DNA of 34,967 bases from a virus. The notes beneath the pieces were generated by a model that searched no databases, had not been told where the DNA came from, and worked only from the letters and a program-made list of their open reading frames with translations. The position numbers and the translations under genes were made by a program. Location: UHGV virus genome UHGV-0384159; one strand, 5' to 3'. This document shows, one piece after another, positions 5,595 through 28,294 of the stretch. Numbering within the stretch: position 1 is the stretch's first letter; each line of letters starts with the position of its first letter.

Positions 5595-6110
5595 AGGAAA
5601 AAGAAGCAATCACCTACCGCCAACAAGAAAATAGGACGGCCCAGCCTCTATACGGAGGCATTAGCCGACGAGATAGCCTCCCGTTTAGCCAACGGGGAAA
5701 CGATGAAGTCCATTTGCTCGGACGATCACATGCCGGAGGTTTTAACTGTCTGGAGATGGAGGCACGAACGGGAAGAGTTTTGTAAACTCATTCAACGCGC
5801 GCGGGAAGCGCAGTCAGAAGCCATGCTCGACGAGTGTCAGTCTTTGTCAGATGCCGCTGCCCAGGTTGCCCTCGACCCCGAATGCGGATCCGCCTCCGTC
5901 GCTGCCAAGAAGCTCGCCATTGAAACGCGGCTGAAAGTTGCCGCCCGTTTTGCCCCCGAGAAATTCGGCGACCGAGTCCGGCAGGATGTAGCGGGCGTTC
6001 CCGGCGCTCCATTGGAACGCAAAATCACCCTGGACCCCGAGCAGCTTGCCCAGCTCCGGGAAGACGAGAAAACCGCGCTGGAAACCATTGCCGGCAAACT
6101 CCACCCTTAA
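5595..6110 (+). CDS. terS: terminase small subunit (N-terminal HTH GRPSLYTEALADEIASRLANGETMKSICSDDHMPEVLTVWRW); proposed AGG start
   Basis: The conserved TerS N-terminal HTH lies upstream of the first ATG (5703). The frame is open from 5589 with no ATG/GTG/TTG before 5703; in-frame AGG at 5595. C-terminal ARFAPEKFGDR motif. Confidence 0.55.
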   Translation, partial: RKKKQSPTANKKIGRPSLYTEALADEIASRLANGETMKSICSDDHMPEVLTVWRWRHEREEFCKLIQRAREAQSEAMLDECQSLSDAAAQVALDPECGSASVAAKKLAIETRLKVAARFAPEKFGDRVRQDVAGVPGAPLERKITLDPEQLAQLREDEKTALETIAGKLHP

Positions 6111-6116: not shown

Positions 6117-7490
6117 AGGAACCATCTCCCCGTCAGCTTCTTCCTCCGTCACATTCTCGGACTCGATCCTTATCCCTGGCAAATCGAGGCCATCAAGGCA
6201 TTGCTTCTTGGAAAGGTGAGGCTGGGAGGTCGAAGCGTGGCCATGGTTGCTCCGAACGGATCGGGAAAGACGAGCCTATCCATTGCGCCCGCAATCCTGT
6301 GTTTCCTTACCTATTTTCCTCGGGGTCAGGTGCCAGTCACGTCATCATCATGGATGCAGGTAGAAAAACAGCTCTTTCCCGCGCTTCGCCGCTATATGGA
6401 TAACCCTTTCTTTGACGGCTGGACATTCAACAAAACCGAAATCCGCACGCCGGAAGGAGGATTTGCCGTGGGATTCTCAACCGACAACGCGGGACGCGCA
6501 GAAGGGTGGCATCCGAAAATCTCGCCCGACGTGGATCCCGTCTTTTACGTCCTGGACGAAGCCAAGACCATTCCCGACTCCATCTTCACCGCTGTTTCCC
6601 GCTGCACGCTCTTCAACGCGTTCATCACCTCGTCGCCGGGTGCCGATTCCGGAACCTTTTACGACTGCTTCCACAAAAATTCATCCCTCTACTACAAAAT
6701 CCGCGTTAAATACGAGGATTGCCCGCACATCGAAATCAACGATCCAGGCAAGGCCGAACGCCTGAAAAAAGAATACGGCGAACAGTCCTCCTTCTACCGC
6801 TCGGCCATCCTCGGCGAATTCACGGACCTTGACGGGCAATCCGTCATTTCCCGCCGCGCCATCATGGAGCTGCTCAACAACCCGCCTCCCTTTTTGGACA
6901 CCGGGGAGACCTGCGGCGGCTTTGACTTCGCCGCCGGGGGTGATGAGAATGTCTTCGCGGCCGGACAGGGCAACCGTTTTTTCATCGCCGACCACTGGGC
7001 CGACCCAGACACTGTAGGAGCGCGCGGACGTTTCCGCCGAAAGGCCGCCGAACTCGGCATCTCTGCCGACCGCATCTTTGCCGACGGCGACGGACTGGGG
7101 CTTCCCATCATTGACGACTTCCGGGCTGAGGGTTTCCCCGTGCACTCCTACCGGGGAGGCTTCCCGGCAGATGACACACAAGCCTTTGTCAACCTCCGCG
7201 CCCAAGCATGGCGGGCTCTCGCCCGCGCCATCGAAGAAAAAGAACTCATCCTCGACATTGACGAGGATACGATTGAGCAGCTGGTTGCTCCACGACTCCA
7301 AACCGACGCAATAGGCCGCGTCCGCATTGAAAGCAAAGAAGATATGGCAAAGCGGGGCGTTCGTTCCCCAGACCGGGCCGACGCCCTTGTGATGGCCTGG
7401 CACGCGCGCCGGAACAGCGGACTGGCGCGGACGCTGGGAGCCTGGTACGCCCGTCCCGTGTCATCAAAACGCGCTTACGGGAGATATTAG
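6117..7490 (+). CDS. terL: terminase large subunit (ATPase); proposed AGG start
   Basis: Walker A VAMVAPNGSGKTS. The Q-motif-like LGLDPYPWQIEAI lies upstream of the first canonical start (TTG 6201). Same frame as terS, separated by one TAA; in-frame AGG at 6117. Confidence 0.6.
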   Translation, partial: RNHLPVSFFLRHILGLDPYPWQIEAIKALLLGKVRLGGRSVAMVAPNGSGKTSLSIAPAILCFLTYFPRGQVPVTSSSWMQVEKQLFPALRRYMDNPFFDGWTFNKTEIRTPEGGFAVGFSTDNAGRAEGWHPKISPDVDPVFYVLDEAKTIPDSIFTAVSRCTLFNAFITSSPGADSGTFYDCFHKNSSLYYKIRVKYEDCPHIEINDPGKAERLKKEYGEQSSFYRSAILGEFTDLDGQSVISRRAIMELLNNPPPFLDTGETCGGFDFAAGGDENVFAAGQGNRFFIADHWADPDTVGARGRFRRKAAELGISADRIFADGDGLGLPIIDDFRAEGFPVHSYRGGFPADDTQAFVNLRAQAWRALARAIEEKELILDIDEDTIEQLVAPRLQTDAIGRVRIESKEDMAKRGVRSPDRADALVMAWHARRNSGLARTLGAWYARPVSSKRAYGRY

Positions 7491-7492: not shown

Positions 7493-7521
7493 TTGACAAC
7501 ATATCAAGATATCAATATATG
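7493..7521 (+). promoter_or_regulatory. sigma70-like promoter (TTGACA -17- TATATG) upstream of the tRNA
   Basis: Consensus -35 TTGACA at 7493-7498; AT-rich -10 region at 7515-7521; tRNA 5' end at 7538. Confidence 0.4.
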
Positions 7522-7537: not shown

Positions 7538-7611
7538 CGCAGGGTGGTGAAACGGTATCACGCGGGGTTCCTGTCCCCGAATCGAAGGTCCAACTCCTTC
7601 CCCTGCAACCA
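7538..7611 (+). tRNA. initiator-like tRNA with anticodon CCU (Arg-type anticodon), CCA encoded
   Basis: Manual cloverleaf: acceptor CGCAGGG/CCCTGCA with C1xA72 mismatch, U8, D-stem GTGA/TCAC with loop AACGGTA, anticodon stem CGGGG/CCCCG with loop TTCCTGT (anticodon 7570-7572), variable loop AATC, T-stem GAAGG/CCTTC with loop TCCAACT, discriminator A, CCA 7609-7611. Confidence 0.7.
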
Positions 7612-7627: not shown

Positions 7628-8992
7628 AGGTTTAACGCCGTCAAAAATATCCTCAACGCCCCGAAGCTGGTAGCCCAACAGGAGACCAGAATCAAGGAGC
7701 TTGAAACGGACCTGGCCCGGCGAGCGTTGACGGAACAGAGCCGGAAGCCTAACCAGCCTCAATGGTACGAATATTGGGACCCGTTACAGGGCGCCGACCT
7801 GCAAACCCTGATTGACGCCCGGAACGAAGCGCGGCGTGGAGCCTTTGCCCGCCAAATGCTCATTTGGGACGAGGTCATCTACTCGGACGGCTTGATGGGC
7901 ATGCTCTATTCCCGGCTCATTGAAAGCGTCTCCATGCAGGGATGGAAGATTGACGCCGCGGACGACAGCCCGGAAGCCCAGCGTCAGCAGAACGCGCTGG
8001 AAGAATTCTATCACTCCGTCACCGGACTTCAACAGGCCTTTGGGCAGTTGGCCTCCGCTATGTTTTACGGGTACGCCCACCTCCAATACATCGAAGATTC
8101 CTGGGGCCGCCGCTTTGAATTCATCCCGCAGCGATACTGGGTGCGGCCCGGAGAGCTGAACGAATGGCAGTTTAATCCCCAGTGCTACATCGGGGTCGAC
8201 ACGGGCGAGAGCGTAGAGGAAGAAACGCTCGTGGTCATGGAGCACCGGAACCCCATTCTTTTTCCGGCAACCCGCGCCTCTTTTGAGCGGAATCACGCCA
8301 AAGTTACGTGGGACAACCATATGGACCGCTACGGGAGCGCCCCGGTCATCATCACGGCGCCCAAGGACGCGAGCGCCGCCGTCATGGACGCGCTGGAACG
8401 GGCCTGTGAGGAACTCAAATCGGGAGCCTCCATTGTGCTTCCTCCCGGCTGCACCGCCGAACCGTTGAAAGCCTCCAACATCAACGAAAACTATTTCCTA
8501 TCCCGAATCAACATGTCCGACAAGGACCAGGTGCGGTTTGTAATGGCCGGCACTCTGACCGTCCTGAATGAATCAGGATCCGGCACGCTGGCCGGGGGAG
8601 CGCACACGGACAGCTGGAATTCGGTCGTCTCCGCGGTCTGTTCCAAGGTCGCCGAAGCTTTTAACGCCGCCATCAGCCCGCTTGTCCTGGGAGACGGCGA
8701 ACCGCTGGCCCGCCTCCACATCACTTTTGACACCGTCCAGACCCCGCTGCAGAAAGCCGAGGAAATCGCCGCGCTTGCCGACGGAGGCGTCCGCCCCGAG
8801 AAGACCGAGATTGAAGAAAAGATCGGCATGTCGATCGAGGACACGCAGGACCCCGTTCCGGTGACGGCGGCGGCCAACAGGGAACCGGAAAAAGCACTCA
8901 TTCCGCCCGATGCTTATGAACAGCTTCAGCAAATGATTTACGCCGGACTCATGAAAGGATTTACCGATGATCAGCACGAAACAAATCAATGA
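7628..8992 (+). CDS. portal protein; proposed AGG start 17 nt after the tRNA
   Basis: Large ORF between terminase and protease. The track's GTG 7544 start would read through the tRNA gene. First in-frame AGG after the tRNA is at 7628; next canonical starts are TTG 7727 or ATG 7853. Confidence 0.5.
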   Translation, partial: RFNAVKNILNAPKLVAQQETRIKELETDLARRALTEQSRKPNQPQWYEYWDPLQGADLQTLIDARNEARRGAFARQMLIWDEVIYSDGLMGMLYSRLIESVSMQGWKIDAADDSPEAQRQQNALEEFYHSVTGLQQAFGQLASAMFYGYAHLQYIEDSWGRRFEFIPQRYWVRPGELNEWQFNPQCYIGVDTGESVEEETLVVMEHRNPILFPATRASFERNHAKVTWDNHMDRYGSAPVIITAPKDASAAVMDALERACEELKSGASIVLPPGCTAEPLKASNINENYFLSRINMSDKDQVRFVMAGTLTVLNESGSGTLAGGAHTDSWNSVVSAVCSKVAEAFNAAISPLVLGDGEPLARLHITFDTVQTPLQKAEEIAALADGGVRPEKTEIEEKIGMSIEDTQDPVPVTAAANREPEKALIPPDAYEQLQQMIYAGLMKGFTDDQHETNQ

Positions 8993-10563: not shown

Positions 10564-11490
10564 AGGGCTACTCCATTTTGCTCCGCCGTTCAGTTCACCG
10601 ATGTCCTGACCTCCTATTCCGCGGGGTCCGGGAACACCGAAGAGAACTCCATCATCAGCCGCATCGCTCCGATCGTCCCGGTCTATGACCTGAATTTCCA
10701 GTACAAGGTCTGGGACACGGAATCGGCCTTCACCGTCCAGCCCATCCAGGTGGGACCGGGCGAACCTCCCCGCCAGACCGTCCTGCGCGGAAGAAACGAA
10801 ACCGACACCCTTCAGGGCTACGGCTTGACGCTGCCCATCCCTGACGCCTTGCTGGGCGTCAACCGGGAAAAGGCGCAGGCCATCACCCTGGCGGAATACA
10901 AACTCATCGAATCCCAGTTTGTGACGTCGTACGAATACGAACGCGCCAAGCTTCTGATGAGCCAGCTTCCGGCCGCTTCCGGGATGGGTGACTGGGCCAA
11001 CCAGCAGAAAAACCCGTTGGCGGATCTGGACCAGGCGATCCTGTCCATCAACGCCGCAACCGGACACATGCCGAACACGATTGTCTTCGGCATCAACGCA
11101 TGGCAGCTGCTTCGCTCCAACACGCTCGCGCGTCAGGTGGTTTCCTTCAACAGCGTCGGCCTGTTCAACGAAGACCTTCTTCGCATGGCTCTGATCCGGC
11201 CCATCCGGGATATTTACATCGCCTCCATGCCGTACCGCGACGCTTCCGGCGACGCGAAAACCATCATGGAAAACGAAGTCTATGTCCTGTACAAGGAAGA
11301 CTCCCCGACGCAGTTCGACGCCTCCGCCGTCAAGACCTTCGGTCTTTCCGGCAAGCTTCGCCGAGAAGTCATCACTGAATACAAGCCGACGCCGGCCTTG
11401 ACGCTCGTCACAAACCGCGTCTACTCGCTGACCAAGTTGACGAACCCCAGCGCCATCGTCCGCATCGACGCGACGGCCACCGGCGATTAA
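10564..11490 (+). CDS. major capsid protein (lambda gpE-like family); proposed AGG start
   Basis: TIVFGINAWQLLRSNTLARQVV resembles IIVFDPKGWALFRS of lambda E. Conserved N-terminal region (ISRIAPIVPVY…) lies upstream of the first canonical start (GTG 10750). Frame open from 10537; in-frame AGG 10564. Confidence 0.55.
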   Translation, partial: RATPFCSAVQFTDVLTSYSAGSGNTEENSIISRIAPIVPVYDLNFQYKVWDTESAFTVQPIQVGPGEPPRQTVLRGRNETDTLQGYGLTLPIPDALLGVNREKAQAITLAEYKLIESQFVTSYEYERAKLLMSQLPAASGMGDWANQQKNPLADLDQAILSINAATGHMPNTIVFGINAWQLLRSNTLARQVVSFNSVGLFNEDLLRMALIRPIRDIYIASMPYRDASGDAKTIMENEVYVLYKEDSPTQFDASAVKTFGLSGKLRREVITEYKPTPALTLVTNRVYSLTKLTNPSAIVRIDATATGD

Positions 11491-14685: not shown

Positions 14686-15336
14686 AGGGCAACTACATAC
14701 GATCCCACATTCACGAACCGCAACGTCACGCCGCAGATTACCGGCGTTCTGGCTATTTTCCTCCCCGACGGCATCAAGGTGACCGAAGACGAGGGAGCTT
14801 CTTACGTCACCGGGCCGGACCAGTTTCCGACGCCTCCGACGTCTCCGCCAACGGATCCGACCGCCGGGCCTGAACAGCCCTGGGTGAGCTTCGGGCTGCT
14901 GGGAGCGTTCCAGTCCGTCGCCACCCAGGTCGAAGGGGAAGTGACGCGCTTTTACGGCGGTGCGCTGGGATATCGCCAGCAGCGCAAGAACACCACGACC
15001 GGCAAGCGGATGACCTTCACCACGCCGGACATGTCCCCCGAATGGTTCCAGCTTTCTTTCGCCTTGGGAGCGCCTCCCGCCAACGGCGAGGAATCGACCA
15101 CCGTCGGACATGGCGGCGACAATAAGATTGAGGGGTATCTTCACTTCTGGTATCAGAACGACGTGGGTACTATCTATCTGGTCGGAACGGCGCATGGCGC
15201 CTTGCGCCTCCTGCAGGATCCCGAACACACCACGGCGATTGCTTCACCCCAGTTCGAGTTCGAAATGGATTATCGCGGCAAGTACCAGTTCACGCCCTCC
15301 AATGTGCAGGACGTGACGCCGGCGCCGGGTTCCTGA
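14686..15336 (+). CDS. tail structural protein; proposed AGG start (MATTYDPTF…)
   Basis: Frame open upstream of GTG 14779 with protein-like sequence; in-frame AGG 14686; followed by a terminator. Confidence 0.4.
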   Translation, partial: RATTYDPTFTNRNVTPQITGVLAIFLPDGIKVTEDEGASYVTGPDQFPTPPTSPPTDPTAGPEQPWVSFGLLGAFQSVATQVEGEVTRFYGGALGYRQQRKNTTTGKRMTFTTPDMSPEWFQLSFALGAPPANGEESTTVGHGGDNKIEGYLHFWYQNDVGTIYLVGTAHGALRLLQDPEHTTAIASPQFEFEMDYRGKYQFTPSNVQDVTPAPGS

Positions 15337-15384: not shown

Positions 15385-17505
15385 AGGCAGCAGGCAGGCA
15401 AATACGATATCCGGACCGTCACGGGGCTGAACCAGTCGCTGGTCGTCCGTGTGGTAGATTTTCAGGGGGATCCCGTCGACATGAGCGGCGTCACCCTCCG
15501 CGGCGCTGTCCGTCTCAAGACAGGCGTCGCCGAGTTCGGCTTTTCCCGCGACGATGAGGGTAACGGCGTGCTTTCCTGGGCTTCGGTGCCTGCGGGCAGG
15601 TGGTCCTACGACGTCTTCATGGACGACGGAAACGAGGAAAGACCGCTGCTCTACGGATGCTTTGTTTCTGCGGGCCGTGTAACGCCTGACTTGCCGGACG
15701 AACAGCAGGCCGTGGCGGGCGCGGTCGTCGTGCAGCTGCCGGAAGGAAGCGGATGCGTGCAGGTGGTGCTTGATAATGCGTCAAGCGCCGCCTGGTACGC
15801 GGAGCAGGCCAAGAAGTACGCCGAGAATTTCAATCTTTCGGTGGACCGGGTCACTACCGGCGAGCCTGGCACTCCTGCCGCAGCGGAAGCCGTGAAAGGC
15901 TCGGAAGCGGGCTCTTATCTGTTGTCGTTTACCATCCCCAAAGGAGACGCCGGTCCCGAAGGCCCACCAGGCCCGCAGGGGGAACCGGGCGAAACCGGCC
16001 CCGAAGGCCCTCAGGGTCCCAGGGGCGACGCAGGACCTCAAGGTCCTCAGGGAGCGACCGGAGAACAGGGACCAAGAGGCGACATTGGAGAAACCGGACC
16101 GCAGGGTCCTGCCGGCCCGCAAGGCCCCGAGGGGCCGGAGGGTCCCCAAGGACCCCGTGGCGAGAAAGGAGATACCGGGGATGTTAATCCGGACGGGTCT
16201 TATAACTGGACGCAGCCGCAGACCTACGACGCCACGATCACCGCAATCGAAGGAGTCCGTGTGCCGCTGCCCGCCACAGGGCAGAATGCCATTTCCTATG
16301 AGGGAATGATAACCATGACGGCTGCCGGCCAATGGAGCCGCACCAACTATTTTCTGGAATCCGTCATTCCGTCATGGGTGACCGCCTTGGTGGAAGCCCA
16401 GTCGTTGAACACAAGCTACGCAATTGCTACCGCTAACGCCTCCCTGAAGAAGGGAGTATTTAATAACGACTTGTGCGATATGGTATTAACCATGACGGCG
16501 GCCGGGGGTGTTTCTGTTATCGGCAAATCCACGGGATCATGGAAATTTGCCAATTACATGGGCAACAATAGAAATAACGAATATGCTGCCGCTTGCGCCT
16601 GGCGGATACTTGGCTCCGACAAGGTGTCGGTTCTCTTGGGCAGCACTGCCCAGGGGTACGCTACGACTGTCGATCCGCTGGCGTCCTGCTATTCACATCC
16701 TGTGCACTGGGTGGATTATGCCTGGGATAATGCAAATTACAGGTATCCGCAAAACAATACAGTCAATGGAGCGAGAGGGGGCGACAATGTGCCGGCGTAT
16801 CAGATCACTACCTACCCTATGGGGTATCTGGGGAGCAATAAGTCGGCCTTGATAAGGGGGACGTTTTACGGACCCCTCAAGGTAGATTCCCATTATGTTT
16901 GGGCATTGGCTCCGGCTTTTACCTACGTCTCCGCGGCCATGACGCCACCCAACCCCGATGACCAGGAGATTTACAATCGCTGGGCTTTGTTTGTGGACAA
17001 GCAATATGTAATGGATATGGCTTCCTCCTTTTGGGGCGCCGGCAACACAGCATGCCTTACAACCAAATTCAAGGCGCACGAAGTCAGCGGGACTTATCAG
17101 GCGGGCCTCCGGATGGGAGGAATGAGGATAGACAATGCACCCTCACTGGGCATAACCAACTCCTGGGTCCTCATGAAGGACACGGTAATGGAGGGCGTGA
17201 CACCTAAACCAGTTCCAGAAGTAACGGCTTCTGCTCAGGAAGTTCCGGCCTCTGGCGGCGAGGTGACATTGACGGCGTCTTCCACCCTCTCCGAGGCTAT
17301 CTATGTGCTGAACGATACCATGTGCGGACATGACCCCGCCGCTGTGTGGTGCACGCAATCCTCTGAAGAAATAGGGTCCGGCGGCGGCCAGGTTGTCCTG
17401 ACGCTGGCGGCAAACACGACTGGACAACCGCGGCAGGTGTGGGCGTTTGTCGGCCACCATTACGCCGAGGCCGCCGTTGTAGAAATCAACCAATTAGCGC
17501 AATAA
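15385..17505 (+). CDS. collagen-like (Gly-X-Y repeat) tail fibre protein; proposed AGG start
   Basis: About 77 uninterrupted GXY triplets ([34 protein letters not shown]…) followed by a roughly 430-aa C-terminal globular domain. Frame open from 15337; in-frame AGG 15385; GTG 15451 and ATG 15481 are alternatives. Confidence 0.6.
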
Positions 17506-18626: not shown

Positions 18627-18692
18627 TCAACTGTAAAGTTTTTCTTACAAGTTCATACATATTAATAACCAATCAATTAAAGGAGAATACCC

Positions 18693-19223
18693 AGGAAAAT
18701 AGCCATTGATATAGGCCATGCCAACAACACCGGAGCCCGTGGAAACAGGCTTGAAGAACACGCCGTAGCAGCGACGATTACGGAACGCCTCGCGCCTATG
18801 CTCAGAAAGCTGGGCGCCCAGGTGGACGTAATTGACTTTCCGGCCCAGAGCAACACGGACGACCTGAACGCCACCATCAAGGCCGCCAACGAAGGCGGCT
18901 ACGACTTCGGGATTTCCCTGCATTGTGACTCATCGGATAATGTGCAAGCTCACGGCGCCCATGTGTGCTTCTATCCCGGGAGCGTTAAGGGAAGCCGGCT
19001 TGCCATGTGCATCGCGGAACCTCTTGCCCGGCTGCTCCCAGGACGGGACTGCACGGTGTTGGCCCGTCCGGGGCTGGCCGTCCTGAAAAGGACGCGCTGC
19101 CCGTGGGTGCTGTGCGAATGCGGCTTTATCACCAATCCTGAAAATGCCGCCCTTATGAAGGACCATCCCGAAGCCATTGCGGAAGCCATTGCGGAAGGAG
19201 TGAAGGCCTATTCCAAGCTGTAG
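18693..19223 (+). CDS. N-acetylmuramoyl-L-alanine amidase (Amidase_3 family); proposed AGG start giving MKIAIDIGH…
   Basis: SD AAAGGAG at 18679-18685, 7-nt spacer, in-frame AGG 18693. The canonical N-terminus KIAIDIGHANNTGARG follows directly. First canonical start (ATG 18798) would remove the catalytic N-terminal motif. Confidence 0.6.
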   Translation, partial: RKIAIDIGHANNTGARGNRLEEHAVAATITERLAPMLRKLGAQVDVIDFPAQSNTDDLNATIKAANEGGYDFGISLHCDSSDNVQAHGAHVCFYPGSVKGSRLAMCIAEPLARLLPGRDCTVLARPGLAVLKRTRCPWVLCECGFITNPENAALMKDHPEAIAEAIAEGVKAYSKL

Positions 19224-19229
19224 ACGATC

Positions 19230-20453
19230 ATGATCTACGAGGCCCCATACTCCGCATGGTACGTTTCCGGAGCCGGAAACACGCTCCAACTCCTCAACCT
19301 CTGGGATGCCACGCCGGAGCCTCCCCGGTTCGGCGGAGACATAGAAGTCTTTGAAACGTCCCTGGTGGACGGCACGAGGGCTTTTGCGGAAGGATTGGGG
19401 TCTGCCGTAGAACACCGCACCTTTGCCTTTTACCGCTGGTTTAAGGACTACGAAGAAATGGCCAGGTATCAGGAAAACCTGGCTGTCTGGATGGCAACCA
19501 ACCAGAACGGCACTCTGTACATGCAGTTTGCCGACCAGCCTCAATGGAGATTCACGTCCGTCCTTGCCGGCTACCAATTTGAAACGGAGAACTTCATTCC
19601 TCCTCCGTCGCCGGAAGACGGTTATTTGTGCCTGCTGGTATCCATCAACATGACGCTCACGGACCGGGTTCCCGACAATTCAGCCTGGGTGTTCTCCGTG
19701 ACTCCTTCCTCGGTTTCCGTCCCGGCTGCCGGCGGACAATATGCGTTCTCCGTCGTCTCCTACTTCAACCCGGGCGAAATCGGGCAGGGCTGGAAAGCCT
19801 TTGAGAACGACGGCATCTCCATCTCCAACATCATCAACGGCAACAATGGCTCCTTCCGGGTTACAGTGCCTCCCAACGAAACTACGGAAGAAAAAAGCAT
19901 TTATCTGACAGTTTCCCAGGACGGAACCGGAATCGCTCCTCTCATTGAGATCACCCAGGCGGCAGCCACGCCCCAGGAGAAAACGGTGGGCTCTCCCGTC
20001 TTCCTGGAAGGGGATCCTGCCAAGATTGCCGCCTTGGGAACATTTAACTGGCGGCAATACCGGATGAAGTGGGGAGAACAGGTAGACGGTGATCCGCCGC
20101 CGGCAGCCTCCATCAAATCCGTCACCGTGGCCCGCGGGAGCGCCAACAACATCAGCGCTGCCCTTTCGCTGTACGTCCTCAATGAGGATGGGTCCACCAC
20201 AACGCTGCTGGCTACCAGCAACGCCGCGGTTAATGACGCCGCCAGCCAGCAGGCGACATTCACCTTCCCGGCGCCGCCCAAGGTGGAAGCCGGGATGCAG
20301 CTCATCTTCCAGCCCGGCGCCGTCGTATACACCAAAATTGAGAATATCACGGCCTACGATTGGGGCGGCATTGCCTATCGGCCTTATCCGGCCGCAATCA
20401 CCACGCCTGCCGTGATGCCGGCCATGTCGCTGGACGTCGAATACATCGGATAA
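19230..20453 (+). CDS. major tail protein with C-terminal Ig-like domain
   Basis: Sits just before the chaperone and tape measure. C-terminal half resembles Big/Ig-like (SVSVPAAGGQYAFSVVSY…VTVPPNETTEEKSIYLTVSQDG). Confidence 0.45.
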   Translation: MIYEAPYSAWYVSGAGNTLQLLNLWDATPEPPRFGGDIEVFETSLVDGTRAFAEGLGSAVEHRTFAFYRWFKDYEEMARYQENLAVWMATNQNGTLYMQFADQPQWRFTSVLAGYQFETENFIPPPSPEDGYLCLLVSINMTLTDRVPDNSAWVFSVTPSSVSVPAAGGQYAFSVVSYFNPGEIGQGWKAFENDGISISNIINGNNGSFRVTVPPNETTEEKSIYLTVSQDGTGIAPLIEITQAAATPQEKTVGSPVFLEGDPAKIAALGTFNWRQYRMKWGEQVDGDPPPAASIKSVTVARGSANNISAALSLYVLNEDGSTTTLLATSNAAVNDAASQQATFTFPAPPKVEAGMQLIFQPGAVVYTKIENITAYDWGGIAYRPYPAAITTPAVMPAMSLDVEYIG

Positions 20454-20789: not shown

Positions 20790-22640
20790 ATGGCTACCAA
20801 GAAAGAAATCGAAATCAAGCTCAAGTCCACGCTGGACGGAAAAGGCGTAGAAGAAGCAAAGCAGAAGATTGACTCCCTGAATAAATCCACAGACCAGCTC
20901 GACAAAGGCAGTCAAAAGGCGACCAAGAGCATCAAGAACATGGGGAAGGGCACCTTACAGGCGGCCTACTTCTTCGATGACCTGCAATACGGCATCAAGG
21001 GCATCCTGAACAATATTCCGGGCCTTGTAATAGGCTTCGGCGGCGGGGCGGGCCTAGCCGGCGCTCTCTCCCTCGCCACGCTTGCAGGCGCGAAGCTCTA
21101 CGAGTGGCTTTCCTCGACGGAAGAGAAGTCAGTTGATTTGACTAAAAAACTTGAAGAAGAAAGAGAGGCTTTCAAAAAGTTAAAAGAAGAAGTTGGTGAA
21201 ATTTCTCGGCAAAACAACAATGAACAAATATTACGGGCGGCAATAGATAGTGCAAAAAAAATAGCTGATTATCGTAAAGAAGAAGCTAACGCATTAAAAT
21301 ATTCTTTGGATTATCGTAAAGAGTTGATTGCTTTAGAATCTGGAATTAATGACGATGAAGCAGAGATCGCCCGCCTAAAAGTAGAGGAAGATTTTGCTAA
21401 TGGGAAATTAGGTGAAGGCGCCGAGGCTGAGCGTCGAAGAGCTCGCTTGTTAGAAGGCATCGAATTAGATAGCCGCGCAAGAAGGAGAAATGAAAGAGAA
21501 GAATCAGCAAAATTAGATGTGTCCGACGCAGTCAATAAGAGAATTGATGCAGCTCGTACCGCAAGAGAAGCTCAAGAGTCACTCCAAAATGCAAAATCTA
21601 ATTCTTACGATATCATGTCTCTTGAAGAAAGAAGGGCGTCAGAAGTTTCTTTAAGTGAAATGAGAAAATCTTTAATAAATGATTTATATGGAGCTTTAAA
21701 ATCGTATAGAGATAAAGAAAGAGATTCCGGAGCCTTACGATATAGGAATGTAAGTGATAAATCTATTTATGATACAGCTAATGAGTTTGTAAATGGAGAA
21801 GAAATTTCAAATAAATTGGTGTATGCATTGCTCGATAAATACCGACCTAGCGACGCAGAATCTAGAAGAGCAAAAATATTTGATATTCAAGGAAACATAG
21901 AGAGAAGTGACATTTCTCTTCAGGATAAAGGTTTTAATTTGGGTGATATGACTTTTGGAGATGGAGGTTATTTGAATGCCTATAAATCTTATGCTGAAAC
22001 CGTAGAAACTCTTGAAAAAGAATATGAAGAATCGGAAAAGTCTTTAATATCAGCAAAGAATGATGAAGAAATAGCAACGCGAAAGCTATCTGATGTAAAG
22101 AGAAAAAACGCCTCGGAAGCCGCTGTTGATATACAACGCGGTAGGACGTCTCAAGCTCAGGAGAGAAGGCAAATCCGTGAAGAAACAGAAAAAGAGGATA
22201 CCGAGAATGAAATCGAAGGCAGAAAAAAAGAAATAGAAACCAAAAAAGATGCTCTGAAGAAGAATAAGGATAATTTTTCTGCTGAACTGGAGCGTTTAGT
22301 TGTTGCTGCAGGGGAGTCTGCCAGTGAGCAACAGAAAGCGATGGTTAGAGCCGCTTCGGAGGCTATTCGGAATCAGGTTAAAAACGCCTCGGCAGATGGA
22401 ATAATTGACTCAGCAGAATATACACAAATAGGAGTTGCCTTTAGAGATGCTTTGAGGCAGCAAGGAATTCAAAACACCTCAATTCTGAATGGACTTACCA
22501 CAAATATGAAACAAGCTCTTTCCCTTGTTAATCAACAAGCGGCAGAATTAAGAGTTCAGCAGGCACGAATCGATCAGTTAACTCGAGAGCTAAAACAAGC
22601 TCAAAATAATATTGGAGGATTACGGCGCAGAAAACATTGA
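20790..22640 (+). CDS. tape-measure-like protein; the C-terminal roughly 500 aa are encoded by AT-rich DNA
   Basis: Glycine-rich hydrophobic N-terminal segment (GLVIGFGGGAGLAGALSLATLAGA) followed by a long K/E-rich predicted coiled coil. Nucleotide composition drops abruptly at about 21120. Confidence 0.45.
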   Translation: MATKKEIEIKLKSTLDGKGVEEAKQKIDSLNKSTDQLDKGSQKATKSIKNMGKGTLQAAYFFDDLQYGIKGILNNIPGLVIGFGGGAGLAGALSLATLAGAKLYEWLSSTEEKSVDLTKKLEEEREAFKKLKEEVGEISRQNNNEQILRAAIDSAKKIADYRKEEANALKYSLDYRKELIALESGINDDEAEIARLKVEEDFANGKLGEGAEAERRRARLLEGIELDSRARRRNEREESAKLDVSDAVNKRIDAARTAREAQESLQNAKSNSYDIMSLEERRASEVSLSEMRKSLINDLYGALKSYRDKERDSGALRYRNVSDKSIYDTANEFVNGEEISNKLVYALLDKYRPSDAESRRAKIFDIQGNIERSDISLQDKGFNLGDMTFGDGGYLNAYKSYAETVETLEKEYEESEKSLISAKNDEEIATRKLSDVKRKNASEAAVDIQRGRTSQAQERRQIREETEKEDTENEIEGRKKEIETKKDALKKNKDNFSAELERLVVAAGESASEQQKAMVRAASEAIRNQVKNASADGIIDSAEYTQIGVAFRDALRQQGIQNTSILNGLTTNMKQALSLVNQQAAELRVQQARIDQLTRELKQAQNNIGGLRRRKH

Positions 22641-22652
22641 AGAAAAATTATC

Positions 22653-23057
22653 ATGATGTATGATGTTGCCATGAAATATTTCTACTTCTGCGGGAATGTT
22701 GTCAAAGGCCCCATATCATTCAGGCAACTACAAATTTTAATTAAAAATCATGTCATAGGACCTGAAACATTAATTTGCGCAGAAGGAACAAATAAATGGT
22801 TCAAGGCTGATGAATTACTAAGGGAAAGCAATAAAACAACTTATTCTACTAAGAAACTTCCAAATCGCAAAGAAAGTAATTCTTTTCTTTCCACAGTCCT
22901 TATATTTCTCGCAACCCTATCGATAGGAGGGGGCTTCATTATGGGGATTGTAAGTTTTGAAGCAGGGTTAATTGGTATTGGAATGGGTTATATTCTGGGA
23001 GGTGCCGTAGTGGCTGTACTTTGGTACACGCTGTATATTTTACTTGCCAAAAAATAA
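22653..23057 (+). CDS. membrane protein with N-terminal DUF4339/GYF-like domain and two C-terminal TM helices
   Basis: YFYFCGNVVKGPISFRQLQILIKNHVIGPETLICAEGTNKWFKADEL motif; TM segments at the C-terminus; AT-rich. Confidence 0.45.
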   Translation: MMYDVAMKYFYFCGNVVKGPISFRQLQILIKNHVIGPETLICAEGTNKWFKADELLRESNKTTYSTKKLPNRKESNSFLSTVLIFLATLSIGGGFIMGIVSFEAGLIGIGMGYILGGAVVAVLWYTLYILLAKK

Positions 23058-23159: not shown

Positions 23160-25337
23160 AGGAACCATAACATTACCATAGATGACTTGCTGGCTCTCAA
23201 GCCATCAAGCCTCACGCACGATCAACAGAGCTTCTCCACGTCCACCATTACGGCAGTTTACCCCGTCAGGACGCTTGGGGAAACTTTGCCGTACAAGCAA
23301 TTCGATACCGTCACCATCTCCCAAAACGGACAAGTCATCCTAGTGGGGCTGGTGTCCAATATTGAAAAAGTATACAGCGGCAGCCAGCGGTCCTGGAGGA
23401 TTGTTTTTTCCGACCCCTGGTATTACCTCGCTAATTGCTATGCCTTGGAAAATGGATGGCAGCCGACGTTCGGGCTTTTCCCCCGTAAAGGCGTAGAGGG
23501 TATTATTCCCAAGGTCAACCTGAGCGGCGCTTTGTCCAGCGTGCTTGACATGGCAAAGCACCACCCAGCCAGCTATGAGCTGCGCATCAGAGACGACAAG
23601 CAGCTGATACCGTGGAATGCATCCTGCGACACTCTTCAAAGTCTGCTGCAGTCCATCCGGCGCTGGTCTCCGCGTATGGTCAGTTATTATGACTATACGG
23701 GAGAGAAACCGAAACTCATCATTACGGACTACGATTCTCTCGACCCTATTTCCCTGCCGCTGCAACCCTCCGCCACAGTCAAAAGCATAGACGTATCACT
23801 GTCACCGCGAGGCGACCTTGTTCCCCCCTGTGTTGCGATTGTGGCAGAATCTACCGGCAGTTCAGGCTATCGCGTCTCCTACCTTTCCAAGTACCCGTCG
23901 GACGGCGACCCTACGCTGCCGCATTCGATCGTCTATCGCGTCTCCTCTGACTTTTATTTCTCCAATTACAATGAGTCAGGCGGTTCCGCTTCCGAACCCC
24001 AGCCCGTAAAGACTTCCAGATCCGGCAGCTTGGCTTATCAGAAGATGATTGTCAAAGGGCGCCGCATTGACGCTGCGGACATGATCAACAGCTTTTGGGC
24101 ACACCATTTCCCGTGGATGAAAGACATCCCGGCAGGGCAGCTTGTGACCTATTCCGACCGGGTCGTCACTCCCAAGGCATGGGAAGGCACGGAAGAGGAA
24201 AAACCCAAGGGGTACGACACCACGGCAACCGCATACGAACTTACAGACGGGCAGATTCACACAAAATCCCTGCGCCCTAAATGGTGCAATACCACCATCA
24301 AGCAGCGTCTAGCCATTCCGGAAAATGCCCCGGCCAAGTGGAGAGAAAAATTTAAGAACATCGGAGTAATTGGAGGAGGAGACACGCCTTGTTTCTGGCA
24401 GGAATTTTCCGTGGACCTGGTGACACTCGACCGCCCCAATGCTACCTATCCGATTGACGGCATTTATAACGGCGAACAGCCGTCAAACGATGAAGACGGA
24501 CCCTCTACCGGACCCAATGACGGAATACCTTATGCCGACATAGCAAGAACGGTGTGGGAATCCATGCAGGAACTTCCCTATGACGGGTCTATCTCCTTTG
24601 CGGCTCGCGGGGGGGCTCAATACTGGCAATACATGGGGCGCCGTGTTTCCTTGCTTGGCGGCAATCCGGAATGGGAAACTATCAATACCATGGTGCAGAC
24701 CGTAAGCCGTGACTTGCAGACCAACGTTATTGAACTTTCCTACGGCTCTCCGTCTCAACTTGGAATCGAAGATTTACTTGAGCTTAATGAAGTGAATGTT
24801 ATTTCAGATGCCTCTTCCGCGTTGGAAAACATGCAGGGAGCGCCGGAACCAATTGACCTGACCTACGACCCCAAGCCGGAATCTCCGACCATTGGACAAC
24901 AGATTACGACCGCCACCGGGTCTGAAGCTCCTGCGCCGGAATACGGCTTCCAGGTGCGCCTGACCAAGGACACAGAAGGAAACATCACCGATGCTCGCAT
25001 CAAACCCGGCGCTCTCTACCTCAACGGCTCTCTCTTGGGATTCTACCCGACCGGAGACGGCGGCTCCGGCTCCTCCTGGGTGAAACTCCCGATGACCAGC
25101 GGGGAGGTCTGGATAAATGTCCACTTCGACCAGGACGCCAAGTTAACCAGCGCGGAAATGTCAGGCATACCGGGAACGGTGTACCCGATCATGCTCGCCC
25201 AGGAAAAACCCGGCGTCAACTTTGACTATGCTTTTCAGGTTGCCGACATCAACGAAGACCAGGTCACGCAATACGCCCTGGGCATGATCCAGATCCCGGT
25301 CTTCGGAGGCACCTTCTACCCCTACGGACCAGCTTAA
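23160..25337 (+). CDS. large distal tail / host-interaction protein; possible AGG start (track start TTG 23187)
   Basis: 716-aa-plus ORF after the tape-measure-like gene. Frame open from 23106; in-frame AGG 23160 sits in the context GCAGGAACCAT, identical to the terL AGG context. Confidence 0.4.
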   Translation, partial: RNHNITIDDLLALKPSSLTHDQQSFSTSTITAVYPVRTLGETLPYKQFDTVTISQNGQVILVGLVSNIEKVYSGSQRSWRIVFSDPWYYLANCYALENGWQPTFGLFPRKGVEGIIPKVNLSGALSSVLDMAKHHPASYELRIRDDKQLIPWNASCDTLQSLLQSIRRWSPRMVSYYDYTGEKPKLIITDYDSLDPISLPLQPSATVKSIDVSLSPRGDLVPPCVAIVAESTGSSGYRVSYLSKYPSDGDPTLPHSIVYRVSSDFYFSNYNESGGSASEPQPVKTSRSGSLAYQKMIVKGRRIDAADMINSFWAHHFPWMKDIPAGQLVTYSDRVVTPKAWEGTEEEKPKGYDTTATAYELTDGQIHTKSLRPKWCNTTIKQRLAIPENAPAKWREKFKNIGVIGGGDTPCFWQEFSVDLVTLDRPNATYPIDGIYNGEQPSNDEDGPSTGPNDGIPYADIARTVWESMQELPYDGSISFAARGGAQYWQYMGRRVSLLGGNPEWETINTMVQTVSRDLQTNVIELSYGSPSQLGIEDLLELNEVNVISDASSALENMQGAPEPIDLTYDPKPESPTIGQQITTATGSEAPAPEYGFQVRLTKDTEGNITDARIKPGALYLNGSLLGFYPTGDGGSGSSWVKLPMTSGEVWINVHFDQDAKLTSAEMSGIPGTVYPIMLAQEKPGVNFDYAFQVADINEDQVTQYALGMIQIPVFGGTFYPYGPA

Positions 25338-25349: not shown

Positions 25350-26075
25350 ATGATCAGAATCTATCTATTCACCTATGCCGGAGACGCGGATGAGGCGCAA
25401 GCCTGCGTCCGGTGCGCCTTGGCAGCCCTCCCTGAAGCCGTCATTACCGTGGCGGACGATGAGGCCGACCCCGTACCGGAACGCACCAGAAAGGCGCTTC
25501 TGGCAGCCGGAGCGCGGTATCGTCAAACCAGCTTCCCGCGCTACGGCAACCTGCGCGGTCCGGAATGCGTCCGGGGCATTATCTCCATGCTGGCCGGCGA
25601 AGCGGCGGACGATGACATCGTCGTCAAAATCGACTCGGATACGGCGCTGCTCAACGGAGCATGGATCAGGGACATGTCTGAAACGGGGGCTCACTGGTGC
25701 GCCTCGGGAGCAGATAGCCGGCAATTCTACGGTCTGTGTTATGCCATGACCGGACTGGCCGCCAAACGAGCCGCGGAAGTGCTGATGCAAGCAGATCTGC
25801 CGGACAACGCTCCGGAGGATCTTACCATCGGGCACACGGTCATTGAACTTTTTGGGGTCGGCAAGGGGAGAATTATCCCCCCCTGGACGCCCCAAAACAG
25901 GGCTGGCCGCTGGTCGGCATGGAACTGGTTCAGCATTTCGGTCGCCCCGGAAAAATATGTTGGGTTTGACGTTGTAACCGTGGGAAGCCCCCGTCCTCCC
26001 CATATTCCAAAAGCAAACCGGGCCCGCGTCATGGATGCCTTATTCCGCTGCCGTTTTCACCAGAAAGAAAATTGA
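25350..26075 (+). CDS. putative GT-A fold glycosyltransferase-like protein (DxD motif), possible lysogenic-conversion moron
   Basis: N-terminal beta-strand IYLFTYAGD and hydrophobic-DxD (DIVVKIDSDTALL). Located between the tail genes and attP/int. Contains a C7 run at 25867-25873. Confidence 0.3.
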   Translation: MIRIYLFTYAGDADEAQACVRCALAALPEAVITVADDEADPVPERTRKALLAAGARYRQTSFPRYGNLRGPECVRGIISMLAGEAADDDIVVKIDSDTALLNGAWIRDMSETGAHWCASGADSRQFYGLCYAMTGLAAKRAAEVLMQADLPDNAPEDLTIGHTVIELFGVGKGRIIPPWTPQNRAGRWSAWNWFSISVAPEKYVGFDVVTVGSPRPPHIPKANRARVMDALFRCRFHQKEN

Positions 26076-26330
26076 TCATCTTGTTGATATCAACAACATG
26101 ACCCTGAGGGTAGGAAAGGAACTGTACAAAAAGCTGAACATTATATTCATAAGTATATTTATAATCAATAAATATAATCCCTCCCGCTCCGCCACTTTTT
26201 TATTACGCTAGAGCACGGAAAGCCTGATTTTACAAGGTTTCCGTGCTTTTTTATTACGCTACATTACCACAGAAAACGGAAAGGTTGCTGTACAAGTGGC
26301 TGTACAAGTTTTAAAAATTGTACAGTTCAT
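26076..26330. other. putative attP / integrase control region with dense repeat architecture
   Basis: 16-bp palindrome TTGTTGATATCAACAA (26081-26096). CTGTACAA at 26122, 26288 and 26300 plus an inverted copy TTGTACAG at 26318. 15-bp direct repeat TTTTTTATTACGCTA at 26196-26210 and 26247-26261. AT-rich block 26141-26180. Confidence 0.4.
26212..26252 (+). terminator. intrinsic terminator AGCACGGAAA…TTTCCGTGCT + TTTTTT
   Basis: 10-bp stem with 16-nt loop followed by a T6 run, downstream of the GT-like gene. Confidence 0.5.
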
Positions 26331-27518
26331 ATGGCAGGAATTATCAAAAGAAGCAATAAATGGGTGGCCGTCTTCAAGACGCTGGACGGCAAAGAGGTCA
26401 GGAAAACCACTCGTATCGACGTGGTTCCAAAGGTTATTCCTCCCGGGGCAAACAAAAGAGCGGTCATAGCGCAAAACGAGGCCAGGGCTCGCCTTATTGC
26501 CGAAGAGCTTGAGCATGGACACAAGACCGGCTTTGTTGACTCGCAGCGGCTCAAAGCTATCGCTGGCGGAGATGTTCAGGCGGCCAGCCTTGGCAGAAAG
26601 GCCGTGAGCGTTGGAGCGTATCTCCATGAATGGCTGCAATCACGATCCGGCAAGATTCAGGCACACGAAAGAGACGGGAAGGCCATCAAGCAGTTTATTT
26701 TGTTCCTGGGGAATGATGGAGGGCAAGCCATAGCCTCCATCAACAAAGACACCGTGAGACGGTTTGCGGAGACAGAAATGGAGCGCGTGTCATCCGGTAC
26801 AGTATCAAGGTATCTCGAATCTCTTTCCTGCGCGTTCAATCAGGCTGTCGAAAAAGAATTGATCATCTCCAATCCTTTCAGGGGAGCCAGGCTGGACAAG
26901 AAAAAAAAGCAGGACGACAAACAGGAGCGCAACGCGTTCACCGTGGAAGAAGTCAAGAGGCTGGTAGAAATTTTACCGGGTGAATGGCCGGACATGATAC
27001 GGGTATGCCTTTATACGGGCGGCCAGCGTTTGGGCGATATTGCCACCCTCAGATGGGAGCAGGTCAACCTTGACGGTGGACTGATTGCCATGACCTCACA
27101 AAAAACCAAGCGGCGCATGAACAAGCCCATCATCCGACCGCTGAAAGAGATTTTGGAAGAGAGGGAGAGATATTCCATCAATGAATTTGTGTTCCCTTTG
27201 GCCGCCATGAAACACGCACAAGGCGGCGGGAAGTCCAGCAAGCTCTCTCTTGAGTTTACCGGACTTCTGAAAAAACACGGCATCATTTCTGCCGGGGAAA
27301 GGAAAGGGAAGGGAGACAAGCGCGTGCTGTCTGAAAAAAGCTTTCACAGCCTGAGGGCGACCGCGGTGACGATTTTGCGGTTGGCAGGGGTGCCGGCGGA
27401 CTTGTGCCGTTTTATTGTAGGGCATGACTCTGAAGAGATTGAACGGGTATATTTCCGGCCCGACTCGCAGGATGTCGTGCATGCAATAGAGGAAATATCC
27501 AGCAAGATTGTTTTGTAA
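26331..27518 (+). CDS. int: tyrosine site-specific integrase
   Basis: C-terminal catalytic motifs HSLRATAVT … VGHDSEEIERVYF (R…HxxR…Y). Confidence 0.7.
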   Translation: MAGIIKRSNKWVAVFKTLDGKEVRKTTRIDVVPKVIPPGANKRAVIAQNEARARLIAEELEHGHKTGFVDSQRLKAIAGGDVQAASLGRKAVSVGAYLHEWLQSRSGKIQAHERDGKAIKQFILFLGNDGGQAIASINKDTVRRFAETEMERVSSGTVSRYLESLSCAFNQAVEKELIISNPFRGARLDKKKKQDDKQERNAFTVEEVKRLVEILPGEWPDMIRVCLYTGGQRLGDIATLRWEQVNLDGGLIAMTSQKTKRRMNKPIIRPLKEILEERERYSINEFVFPLAAMKHAQGGGKSSKLSLEFTGLLKKHGIISAGERKGKGDKRVLSEKSFHSLRATAVTILRLAGVPADLCRFIVGHDSEEIERVYFRPDSQDVVHAIEEISSKIVL

Positions 27519-27615
27519 TCCTCTCGGGAGGAATTTGTCATCACGTGAACGGATAATCGATGACACAACGTCTTACCGGAGTCACAAGACATCAAATCTC
27601 ATGAAAAAACAGGAG

Positions 27616-27644
27616 TTTCTACCCCCCCCCCCCCGCATTATAAC
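27616..27644 (+). promoter_or_regulatory. candidate promoter whose spacer is a C13 homopolymer (TTTCTA - C13 GCAT - TATAAC)
   Basis: 13 consecutive C at 27622-27634, between a weak -35-like hexamer and a good -10-like TATAAC (27639-27644); 17-bp spacing; upstream of the 27700 small ORF. Confidence 0.35.
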
Positions 27645-27699
27645 GCTTTAAATGCTAGCGTGTTAGGAGAAAAAATATCAGCAAGAAAGGGTTACGTCC

Positions 27700-27846
27700 A
27701 TGTCAGGTAACGTGATGCTTGTGTTTTTCTTGCTGGCCGTCCTATTCGGGTTCACTTGTTTCCGACTCGGCATTATTGAAGGTTGCCGGAGAACCACGAA
27801 AAGGATCTTGGAGAATATCGCAAAAGGAATGAAGAAGGGGGAATAA
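27700..27846 (+). CDS. 48-aa small hydrophobic peptide (single TM, basic C-terminus)
   Basis: SD AAGAAAGGG 8 nt upstream of the ATG. MSGNVMLVFFLLAVLFGFTCFRLGIIEGCRRTTKRILENIAKGMKKGE. Its stop lies inside the terminator hairpin. Confidence 0.4.
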   Translation: MSGNVMLVFFLLAVLFGFTCFRLGIIEGCRRTTKRILENIAKGMKKGE

Positions 27847-27872
27847 GCTATTCCCCCTTTTTCTTCTCTTCC
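27837..27872. terminator. bidirectional intrinsic terminator GGGGGAATA-AGC-TATTCCCCC + T-rich tail
   Basis: Perfect 9-bp stem with 3-nt loop. Both convergent genes' stop codons (27844-27846 plus strand, 27848-27850 minus strand) fall within it. Confidence 0.55.
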
Positions 27873-28225
27873 TGTAAACGTTTTAAAAGGAGTTCTTTAT
27901 TGTCTCCTGCGTATTCCAGAACGTAAATAATCCAGTCCACGATATTCATTCCACAAGCTTTCGCGTAATTGTTGAATTCAAGGAATTTATCATGCGAAAC
28001 CTTGAGGTTGATGTCAAGATCAGCAATAGAGATTTGGTTATCATCAGCAGGTTTGGGTTGACTCATTAGCTTGTCAATAATGATCAGAGCCTTTTTAGGA
28101 ATCTCTCTGTTCTTGGACATCCAGTTATTGACCTGACCGTAAGACACTCCGCACTGCTCGGCTAACCATTTTCTATCCTTTTTGAGCGTTTTTAGCCACT
28201 GATCTATTTCTTGCTTCGTGTACAT
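27848..28225 (-). CDS. XRE-family HTH repressor (CI-like)
   Basis: HTH LAEQCGVSYGQVNNWMS. ATG at 28225 (the track's TTG 28261 is an alternative). Divergent from the antirepressor operon. Confidence 0.6.
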   Translation of the reverse strand: MYTKQEIDQWLKTLKKDRKWLAEQCGVSYGQVNNWMSKNREIPKKALIIIDKLMSQPKPADDNQISIADLDINLKVSHDKFLEFNNYAKACGMNIVDWIIYVLEYAGDNKELLLKRLQEEKKKGE

Positions 28226-28235
28226 GGACAAATAG

Positions 28236-28255
28236 TTATCAGCCGATGCTGATAA
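28236..28255. promoter_or_regulatory. operator O1: TTATCAGC-CGAT-GCTGATAA (8-bp inverted repeats)
   Basis: Perfect inverted repeat 11-30 bp upstream of the repressor ATG. Confidence 0.5.
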
Positions 28256-28294
28256 TTGCAAGGCGAAAATAATAACAGTATGCTGAAATATGTG

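Follow-up and report, generated by a model that had tools for sequence, protein, structure and literature searches.

AGG as a probable start codon of late genes in a temperate Akkermansia phage carrying an initiator-type tRNA with a CCU anticodon

The stretch of viral DNA analysed here (UHGV-0384159, 34,967 nucleotides (nt); hereafter the window) carries an amidase gene that raises a simple question: where does its translation begin? The first ATG, GTG or TTG in the stop-to-stop open reading frame (ORF) at 18681-19223 is the ATG at 18798, 39 codons in, and the 5' end of the frame reads TAA(18678-80) AGG AGA ATA CCC AGG(18693-95) AAA ATA GCC ATT GAT ATA GGC CAT. An earlier note, made from the letters alone, had proposed that the gene starts at AGG 18693, placed 7 nt behind the Shine-Dalgarno sequence AAAGGAG (18679-18685), that no ATG, GTG or TTG lies between the stop TAA (18678-18680) and ATG 18798, and that the AGG is linked to the tRNA encoded at 7538-7611. 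Direct reading confirmed the first arrangement, and reading of the ORFs confirmed the lack of a canonical start codon. Judging from the comparisons described below, AGG 18693 is probably a real start codon that is read by a phage initiator-type tRNA, and there is a good probability that, through this tRNA(CCU), AGG serves the late genes as a private start codon. The features of the amidase locus are as follows.

18679..18685, + strand: Shine-Dalgarno sequence AAAGGAG, read directly, with a 7-nt spacer before the AGG; kept in 17/17 related loci, whether of ATG or AGG type
18693..18695, + strand: AGG, proposed initiation codon of the amidase gene, with an in-frame TAA four codons upstream; placed by homologue alignment
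18693..19223, + strand: coding sequence (CDS) of an Amidase_3 endolysin, 176 amino acids (aa) from the AGG; Pfam PF01520, PHROG 435 and PDB alignments

The translated frame belongs to the Amidase_3 family. It matched Pfam PF01520 with 99.3 bits against a curated cut-off of 27 (3.3e-28), covering profile positions 1-173 of 174 from the Ile of ATA 18699, and it matched the endolysin family PHROG 435 at 2e-41. The solved endolysins and amidases 3qay, 4rn7, 7tj4, 5emi and 1jwq aligned from amidase residue 2 or 3; the 3qay alignment opened at the Lys of 18696, and both 3qay and 4rn7 spanned the full length of the amidase. In the alignment with 3qay, DIGH corresponded to TVGH, SLHCD to ELHLN, and LCECGF to LIESFF, and we take the zinc ligands (the N-terminal His and the downstream Glu and His) to be residues in these three blocks. 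A start at ATG 18798 would cost about 33 domain residues, roughly one third of Amidase_3, including the His of DIGH; the Pfam and 3qay alignments thus upheld the claim that such a start would delete the N-terminal zinc-binding His motif. The description of this region as a textbook amidase N-terminus was slightly generous, since the domain is complete but the motif is IDIGHAN and not DxGHGG.

The bare pattern AAGGAG-N7-AGG was only weakly unusual in the window, with 2 matches against 0.34 expected and 2 reached in 4 of 100 shuffles, and the weight of the case lies with comparative data rather than with this pattern. The best 120 amidase homologues were inspected. Most of them were 173-197 aa long with the N-terminus MKIAIDIGHANNTG or MNIALDIGHA, and the alignment to Amidase_3 homologues that the earlier note had called for placed their Met exactly on the AGG position; a second group had been called at 141 or 158 aa, from a Met equivalent to 18798. 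DNA was fetched for both the long and the short kind, giving 17 related loci whose 5' regions were collinear, all with AAAGGAG and a C at -1. The triplet aligned to 18693 was ATG in nine loci (L001 and L010-L017, with proteins beginning MKIAIDIGH) and AGG in the other eight (L002-L009), which come from different samples and assemblers. Because the 5' DNA is collinear and the AGG aligns with the ATG of the homologues, the 141-aa proteins appear to be gene-caller truncations of AGG-type genes. The window amidase was 88% identical to a 176-aa protein (P0001), and over the 34 codons from the AGG to ATG 18798 the window and L002, both of the AGG type, differed by 8 synonymous and 3 non-synonymous codon changes, which argues that the segment upstream of 18798 is translated. 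The placement of homologue Met on the AGG, together with the coding-type evolution of these 34 codons, favours AGG 18693 as the predicted start of the amidase.

If AGG is a start codon, what would read it? The following two features were considered.

7538..7611, + strand: tRNA of initiator type with anticodon CCU, called tRNA-Arg(CCU) by ARAGORN and the sole tRNA in the window
7493..7521, + strand: candidate tRNA promoter, TTGACA-17 nt-TATATG, ending 16 nt upstream of the tRNA; TTGACA nearly invariant

The tRNA scored 52.7 bits against the Rfam tRNA model with the 1:72 pair marked as non-standard, and its predicted fold is a cloverleaf in which position 1 is unpaired. It has C1xA72, G2-C71, C3-G70, A73 and an encoded CCA, and in the window the anticodon-stem pairs 29:41, 30:40 and 31:39 are all G-C. 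Its acceptor end is that of Escherichia coli tRNAfMet at positions 1-3 and 70-76; this comparator was checked and proved to be a tRNA-Met gene, with a median of four copies per genome across 5,426 E. coli genomes. The C1xA72 mismatch and the G-C anticodon-stem pairs correspond, as far as sequence can tell, to the hallmarks of a bacterial initiator. The formylase (Fmt) recognises chiefly the 1:72 mismatch together with 2:71 and 3:70, and the three anticodon-stem G-C pairs license passage of the initiator through initiation, with G30-C40 being essential and natural exceptions of the au/GC/GC and GC/GC/gu type being tolerated (PMC5389676). The tRNA lay directly 3' of the large terminase gene (terL) in all close relatives with contigs extending that far, and 39 loci yielded 16 distinct sequences. 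All 20 stem pairs were kept in 16/16 variants, with compensatory double changes at seven pairs, and C1xA72, the CCT anticodon, G30-C40, A73 and CCA were invariant. These results suggest that selection maintains the folded tRNA and also the C1xA72 mismatch. The remaining formylase determinants were nearly as constant (G2-C71 in 15/16, with one G-U, and C3-G70 in 16/16), and the anticodon-stem triple was GC/GC/GC in 12/16 variants, au/GC/GC in two and GC/GC/ug in two, matching the tolerated natural exceptions. A paired 1:72 is required for binding of EF-Tu; thus an elongator tRNA-Arg(CCU) would share the CCU anticodon, but it would not be expected to have CxA at 1:72, as was found in 16/16 variants. 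The phage tRNA would therefore strictly be neither tRNAfMet (by its anticodon and its 11:24 pair) nor an elongator tRNA-Arg (by 1:72), and it is predicted to work like a tRNAfMet that has the anticodon of tRNA-Arg. The candidate promoter at 7493-7521 was not flagged in a promoter scan, and the idea that it is dedicated to the tRNA is speculative.

Related tRNAs were sought elsewhere. The anticodon-arm pattern GGGGTTCCTGTCCCC was searched in IMG/VR, and none of the 38 out-of-family matches checked contained a tRNA; these matches, being without a tRNA, were set aside as chance. An E. coli-type initiator arm with a mutated middle anticodon base (GTCGGGCTCBTAACCCGAAG) gave no match, so no other phage group has yet given evidence of such a system built on this tRNA body. 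The sibling-tRNA pattern with a middle anticodon base other than C recovered ordinary tRNA-Thr genes and one tRNA-Met(CAU) with G1xA72. The latter lies on an unrelated viral contig of low G+C content (L164, positions 895-968 of IMGVR_UViG_3300001487_000076), has the D arm, T loop and acceptor positions 2-5 of the phage tRNA and has an au/GC/GC anticodon stem. It was identical to the phage variants at 52-56 of 74 positions, with 56 of 74 reached against one variant, which is marginally above the other tRNAs compared. It may be a CAU-anticodon relative of the phage tRNA; the similarity is too weak to claim it as an ancestor.

We examined how widely the arrangement at the amidase recurs, with start-site counts drawn from 58 related loci. 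The window is a temperate Akkermansia phage (84% identity to Akkermansia phage DTMo-2021a, CP084202, across 80% of a 15-kb query) with a late module of small terminase (terS), terL, tRNA, portal, protease, major head protein, connectors, collagen-like fibre, holin-like protein and amidase. Eight long late-gene frames, the amidase included, have no canonical start near the 5' end, and each has an in-frame AGG where homology or domain alignment puts the start of the protein. AGG starts were thus assigned to 8/23 late genes and to none of the early genes examined; all early and lysogeny genes (integrase, Bro/ANT antirepressor, RecT, YqaJ, RuvC and D12 methyltransferase) have ATG starts. The seven further genes are listed below.

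5595..6110, + strand: small terminase (terS) CDS; AGG 5595 in 39/39 loci
6117..7490, + strand: large terminase (terL) CDS; AGG 6117 in 40/41 loci, with a stop two codons upstream
7628..8992, + strand: portal (Portal_Mu) CDS, 16 nt after the tRNA; AGG 7628 in 39/39 loci, with C at -1 in 39/39
10564..11490, + strand: major head protein CDS; AGG 10564 in 47/48 loci, the exception (L047) having ATG exactly there
14686..15336, + strand: CDS of a 216-aa protein of the structural module; AGG 14686 in 40/40 loci
15385..17505, + strand: collagen-like tail fibre CDS, with collagen and tail-fibre matches; AGG 15385 in 39/39 loci
23160..25337, + strand: CDS of a 725-aa protein, a weaker case for an AGG start; cAGG in 17/17 loci

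Protein alignments agreed with these positions. In TerS the Pfam Sf6_terminase domain begins at residue 18 and the first ATG is residue 37; the DNA upstream of terS is non-homologous between subgroups, and homology opens at AGG 5595. PHROG 113 aligned residue 54 of the portal to profile position 51, and PHROG 1005 aligned to the major head protein from residue 12, its first canonical start being at codon 62. Distant TerL relatives (31-43% identity) that do not have the tRNA had ATG or GTG at the equivalent start, and in L047, the most divergent member of the family, an ATG lies two codons downstream of the aligned terL AGG position. In the stretch that separates each AGG from the next canonical start, variation was concentrated at third codon positions. 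Variable columns at the first, second and third positions numbered 6/2/18 in terL (up to the first TTG), 15/10/54 in the 75 portal codons before ATG 7856, 11/12/45 in the major head protein gene, 1/4/22 before the first GTG of the 216-aa gene (where a stop lies five codons upstream in 10 loci) and 2/0/14 in the tail fibre gene. No third-position bias was seen in the 60 nt upstream of each AGG, and in-frame stops were present 2-8 codons upstream of the AGGs in at least some loci. The 725-aa protein probably also starts at its AGG (23160); the presence of a conserved TTG just nine codons downstream weakens this case. Public gene calls for the phage family were systematically wrong at these genes, with amidases of 141 or 158 aa, major head proteins of 246-278 aa and not 308, and portals of 480-493 aa (window 7523-8992) that read through the tRNA gene. 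Within the fibre gene, internal codon 72 (15598-15600) is AGG in the window and seven loci and ATG in 30 loci, an Arg/Met polymorphism that may be an ordinary substitution or an internal start.

The conservation of the AGG triplets themselves distinguished start sites from internal codons. Six well-covered start-site AGGs were 97.6-100% conserved in 39-48 loci, whereas 12 internal in-frame AGG codons with similar coverage had a mean conservation of 39%, with none reaching 97.5%. All six start-site triplets ranked above the 12 internal ones, for which the exact rank probability, calculated by hand, is 1/18564. The internal codons drifted to CGG, AAG, CGT and AGA, as Arg codons do, and the only substitutions at start-site AGGs were ATG and one AAG. 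Inside phage genes AGG occurred 4.9 times per 1000 codons compared with 7.1 per 1000 in a small sample of 1261 host-flank codons, and this low internal use makes codon supplementation a poor rationale for the tRNA. As is expected when a phage reassigns a codon, the tRNA co-occurs with AGG starts, and these are concentrated in late genes. Taken together, the initiator hallmarks, the CCU anticodon and the same arrangement at six or seven other late genes are in good agreement with the link between AGG 18693 and the tRNA that the earlier note had suggested.

Three related ideas were tried and rejected. Toggling between AGG and ATG did not serve as a genome-wide start signal, since toggles occurred at many non-start positions; conservation is diagnostic instead. 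A ninth candidate AGG start, at 4944, was discarded because the periodicity of variation was wrong for that frame. Finally, we considered extended codon-anticodon pairing between G37 of the tRNA and a C at -1, which is present at 7/8 AGG sites. A C is also common before ATG starts, and cAGG is retained at every site in the four loci with an A37 tRNA, so that this pairing is unsupported.

On the basis of these comparisons, we infer that the phage tRNA initiates translation at AGG. With an ordinary Shine-Dalgarno sequence ahead of the AGG, the 30S subunit would seat the tRNA(CCU) on this codon in the P site. C1xA72 with G2-C71 and C3-G70 would serve as the formylase determinant and would also disfavour EF-Tu, the anticodon-stem G-C pairs would provide licensing in the P site and by initiation factor 3 (IF3), and the change of the anticodon from CAU to CCU would make AGG a start only when the phage tRNA is present. 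The same device would operate at terS, terL, portal, major head protein, the 216-aa protein and the tail fibre, and probably at a seventh gene, that of the 725-aa protein. Output of virion and lysis proteins would then be tied to expression of a tRNA inside the late operon, and such a regulatory lock on late-gene translation is likely. Methionyl-tRNA synthetase (MetRS) needs a CAU anticodon, and C35 and U36 are determinants for arginyl-tRNA synthetase (ArgRS); the tRNA is therefore probably arginylated, and it may be formylated. With somewhat more reserve, we favour the full picture of a natural orthogonal initiation system, in which a second initiator tRNA(CCU) uses AGG as its private start, terminase, portal, capsid, fibre and some lysins are made only with the tRNA, and their N-terminal residue is probably not Met but formyl-Arg or Arg.

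Several observations weigh against this interpretation. The genomes that carry the tRNA are all members of a single phage family, and the co-occurrence of the tRNA with AGG starts is therefore, phylogenetically, a single event. Roughly half the relatives have ATG at the amidase start, and at least one of these (L001) carries the tRNA, which indicates that AGG is dispensable for the amidase gene. The conserved TTG nine codons downstream of AGG 23160 offers a TTG start for the 725-aa gene. The tRNA itself departs from tRNAfMet in several respects: the CAU anticodon recognised by MetRS is replaced by CCT in 16/16 variants, and the D stem has U11:A24 in 16/16, where E. coli tRNAfMet has A11:U24. 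Position 37 is G in 15/16 variants (A in the remaining one), although tRNAfMet has A37 and A37 is typical for tRNAs of ANN codons; U32/U38, a short D loop, a 4-nt variable loop and the T loop UCCAACU with C55 are likewise unlike tRNAfMet. Position 20 reads U (7-nt D loop AACGGUA, in which short-loop numbering is ambiguous) and not A20, an identity element of E. coli ArgRS, and charging of the tRNA is thus uncertain. Moreover, basic amino acids are reportedly poor substrates of the formylase.

Of the alternative explanations, the one that fares best is that the AGG start is read with a mismatch by host tRNAfMet(CAU) and is deliberately weak, the phage tRNA being an elongator tRNA-Arg(CCU) or a version resistant to anticodon nucleases. 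Measurable initiation from non-canonical codons does occur in E. coli, but codons outside AUG, GUG, UUG, AUA, AUC, AUU and CUG initiate at about 0.01-1% of AUG (10.1101/063800), a level that, without a dedicated tRNA, is too low to supply the major head protein and is implausible also for portal and terminase. What IF3 inspects is whether codon and anticodon are complementary at positions one and two, not which codon is present, and a mismatch at the second codon position is reportedly not tolerated (PMC11744186). Some phage tRNAs are known to escape host nucleases through altered anticodon loops (PMC10264068), and both the unusual anticodon loop (U32, G37, U38) and the ARAGORN label of tRNA-Arg would fit an elongator; an elongator, however, would be expected to pair 1:72, whereas C1xA72 is invariant while the other acceptor pairs are held by compensation, and AGG codons are rare inside phage genes. 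We consider mismatch reading of this kind unlikely.

A still less probable explanation, to which we give very little credence, is that the amidase starts at a near-cognate codon (ATA 18699, ATT 18705 or ATA 18687) through host tRNAfMet and that the AGG is incidental. ATA 18699 and ATT 18705 are in frame ahead of the His motif, AUA and AUU support initiation in E. coli at roughly 1-2% of the AUG level (10.1101/063800), and some relatives have ATA or ATC at the gene starts 2152 and 20481. The Met of the homologues falls on the AGG, however, and not on the Ile codons, and the spacing from the Shine-Dalgarno sequence is poor (13 nt to ATA 18699 and 19 nt to ATT 18705). Near-cognate initiation would also fit the amidase only, since the other AGG genes share no near-cognate codon beside the AGG, which is itself conserved. 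Finally, damage to the gene or a sequencing error (ATG to AGG is a one-base change), leaving the 141-aa product of ATG 18798 that gene callers report (P0007, P0012 and others) or none, is extremely improbable and appears to be ruled out by independent recurrence of the AGG in its eight loci (with protein cluster P0012 indexed in 86 blocks of the collection) and by the coding constraint on the N-terminal segment within the AGG clade, and the 18798 product would be without one third of the domain and the first zinc ligand and would leave the same device in essential genes (terL, major head protein) to be explained.

Other features of the window and its relatives were recorded in passing. At two ATG gene starts, 2152 and 20481, the relatives have ATA in 6/14 and ATC in 3/14 loci, respectively; these are possibly near-cognate starts, or the true starts of those relatives lie elsewhere. 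Integrated relatives (L004 and L010-L012, about 19000-19230) lie beside a tRNA-Glu(TTC) of the host and have their integrase at the end of the prophage. The integrase of the window (26331-27515, + strand) sits mid-sequence, and the window therefore looks like a circularised or permuted form of the phage. Upstream of this gene (about 26200-26270), TTTTTTATTACGCTA is repeated on both sides of a G+C hairpin, which could be attP or a terminator. Islands of low G+C content (39-48% compared with 55-63% elsewhere) lie at 3000-5000, 21000-23000 and 26000-29000; the first contains, on the minus strand at 3006-4307, a gene for a 434-aa protein with several helix-turn-helix domains, and the 17-nt direct repeat CCCTGGAATCTCGTATA occurs twice at 2941-2977, just 3' of the gene that ends at 2940. 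The cargo at the right end varies among relatives (L002, 17616-20337; L003, 17605-19892; L006-L008). It consists of a D12 methyltransferase and an AAA_15/AAA_21 ATPase, with a DUF4435 protein in addition in L003, and it resembles a PARIS-like defence pair.

If private AGG initiation proves true, it would break the near-universal rule of a single initiator tRNA with a CAU anticodon. Synthetic biologists have built orthogonal start codons, each with a dedicated tRNA, by hand; here a virus would have arrived at one through evolution and would supply them with a naturally optimised part. It would add a layer of control to the lysis-lysogeny decision of prophages in Akkermansia muciniphila, which is of interest in medicine and as a probiotic. 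Standard gene callers would mis-annotate such genomes, with lysin, major head protein and terminase truncated in public data. Further cases could be sought by a simple combination of two signs, a tRNA that has a non-CAU anticodon and is mismatched at 1:72, and genes without a start codon. A literature search, with most subscription-journal papers outside its reach, returned only engineered initiator tRNAs with a non-CAU anticodon, no natural one, and nothing on Akkermansia phage tRNAs. The lack of a natural precedent for such an AGG-start system is thus absence of evidence.

How, then, does the system compare with known ones? Phage suppressor tRNAs (Ivanova 2014; Borges et al. 2022) reportedly recode stop codons, chiefly within late, structural and lysis genes, and this distribution has been read as a timing lock. 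There, as here, a phage tRNA changes the meaning of a codon and late genes are the ones affected, but the recoded stop is read in elongation, whereas the Arg codon AGG, a sense codon, would be used for initiation, and in-frame stops play no part in the window. With bacterial tRNAfMet the phage tRNA shares C1xA72, G2-C71, C3-G70, A73 and G29-C41/G30-C40/G31-C39; it differs in its anticodon (CCU and not CAU), U11:A24, G37, U32/U38, short D and variable loops and C55. Like phage elongator tRNAs, to which codon supplementation and nuclease evasion are ascribed (PMC10264068), it is a single gene in the late region, but the invariant 1:72 mismatch, the scarcity of internal AGG and the conserved AGG at gene starts set it apart. 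Natural near-cognate starts, such as AUU in infC and GTC in sigR (PMC5472188), are likewise non-AUG and possibly regulatory; they are read by the normal initiator through a mismatch and in single genes, in contrast to the complementary dedicated tRNA and the many genes proposed here. The amidase itself is the same full-length, single-domain N-acetylmuramoyl-L-alanine amidase as other Amidase_3 endolysins (CD27L, PDB 3qay), with a zinc-ligand His near the N-terminus, and the start codon is the sole difference. When the anticodon of tRNAfMet is altered by engineering, the mutant tRNA initiates efficiently at the matching non-AUG codon, in most cases with an amino acid other than Met (PMC11744186, 10.1101/524249, 10.1101/2021.05.25.445580). 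The engineered initiators (amber tRNAfMet-CUA and i-tRNA-AAC) share with the phage tRNA the 1:72 mismatch, the anticodon-stem G-C pairs and a non-CAU anticodon; they are laboratory constructs on a tRNAfMet body, whereas the phage tRNA, with its unlike D stem, position 37 and T loop, is natural, occurs in about 40 independent loci and is predicted to serve at least seven genes. By analogy, we would regard stop-codon recoding by phage suppressor tRNAs as the closest natural analogue of AGG initiation by the phage tRNA, and the engineered amber and AAC initiator tRNAs as the closest mechanistic one.

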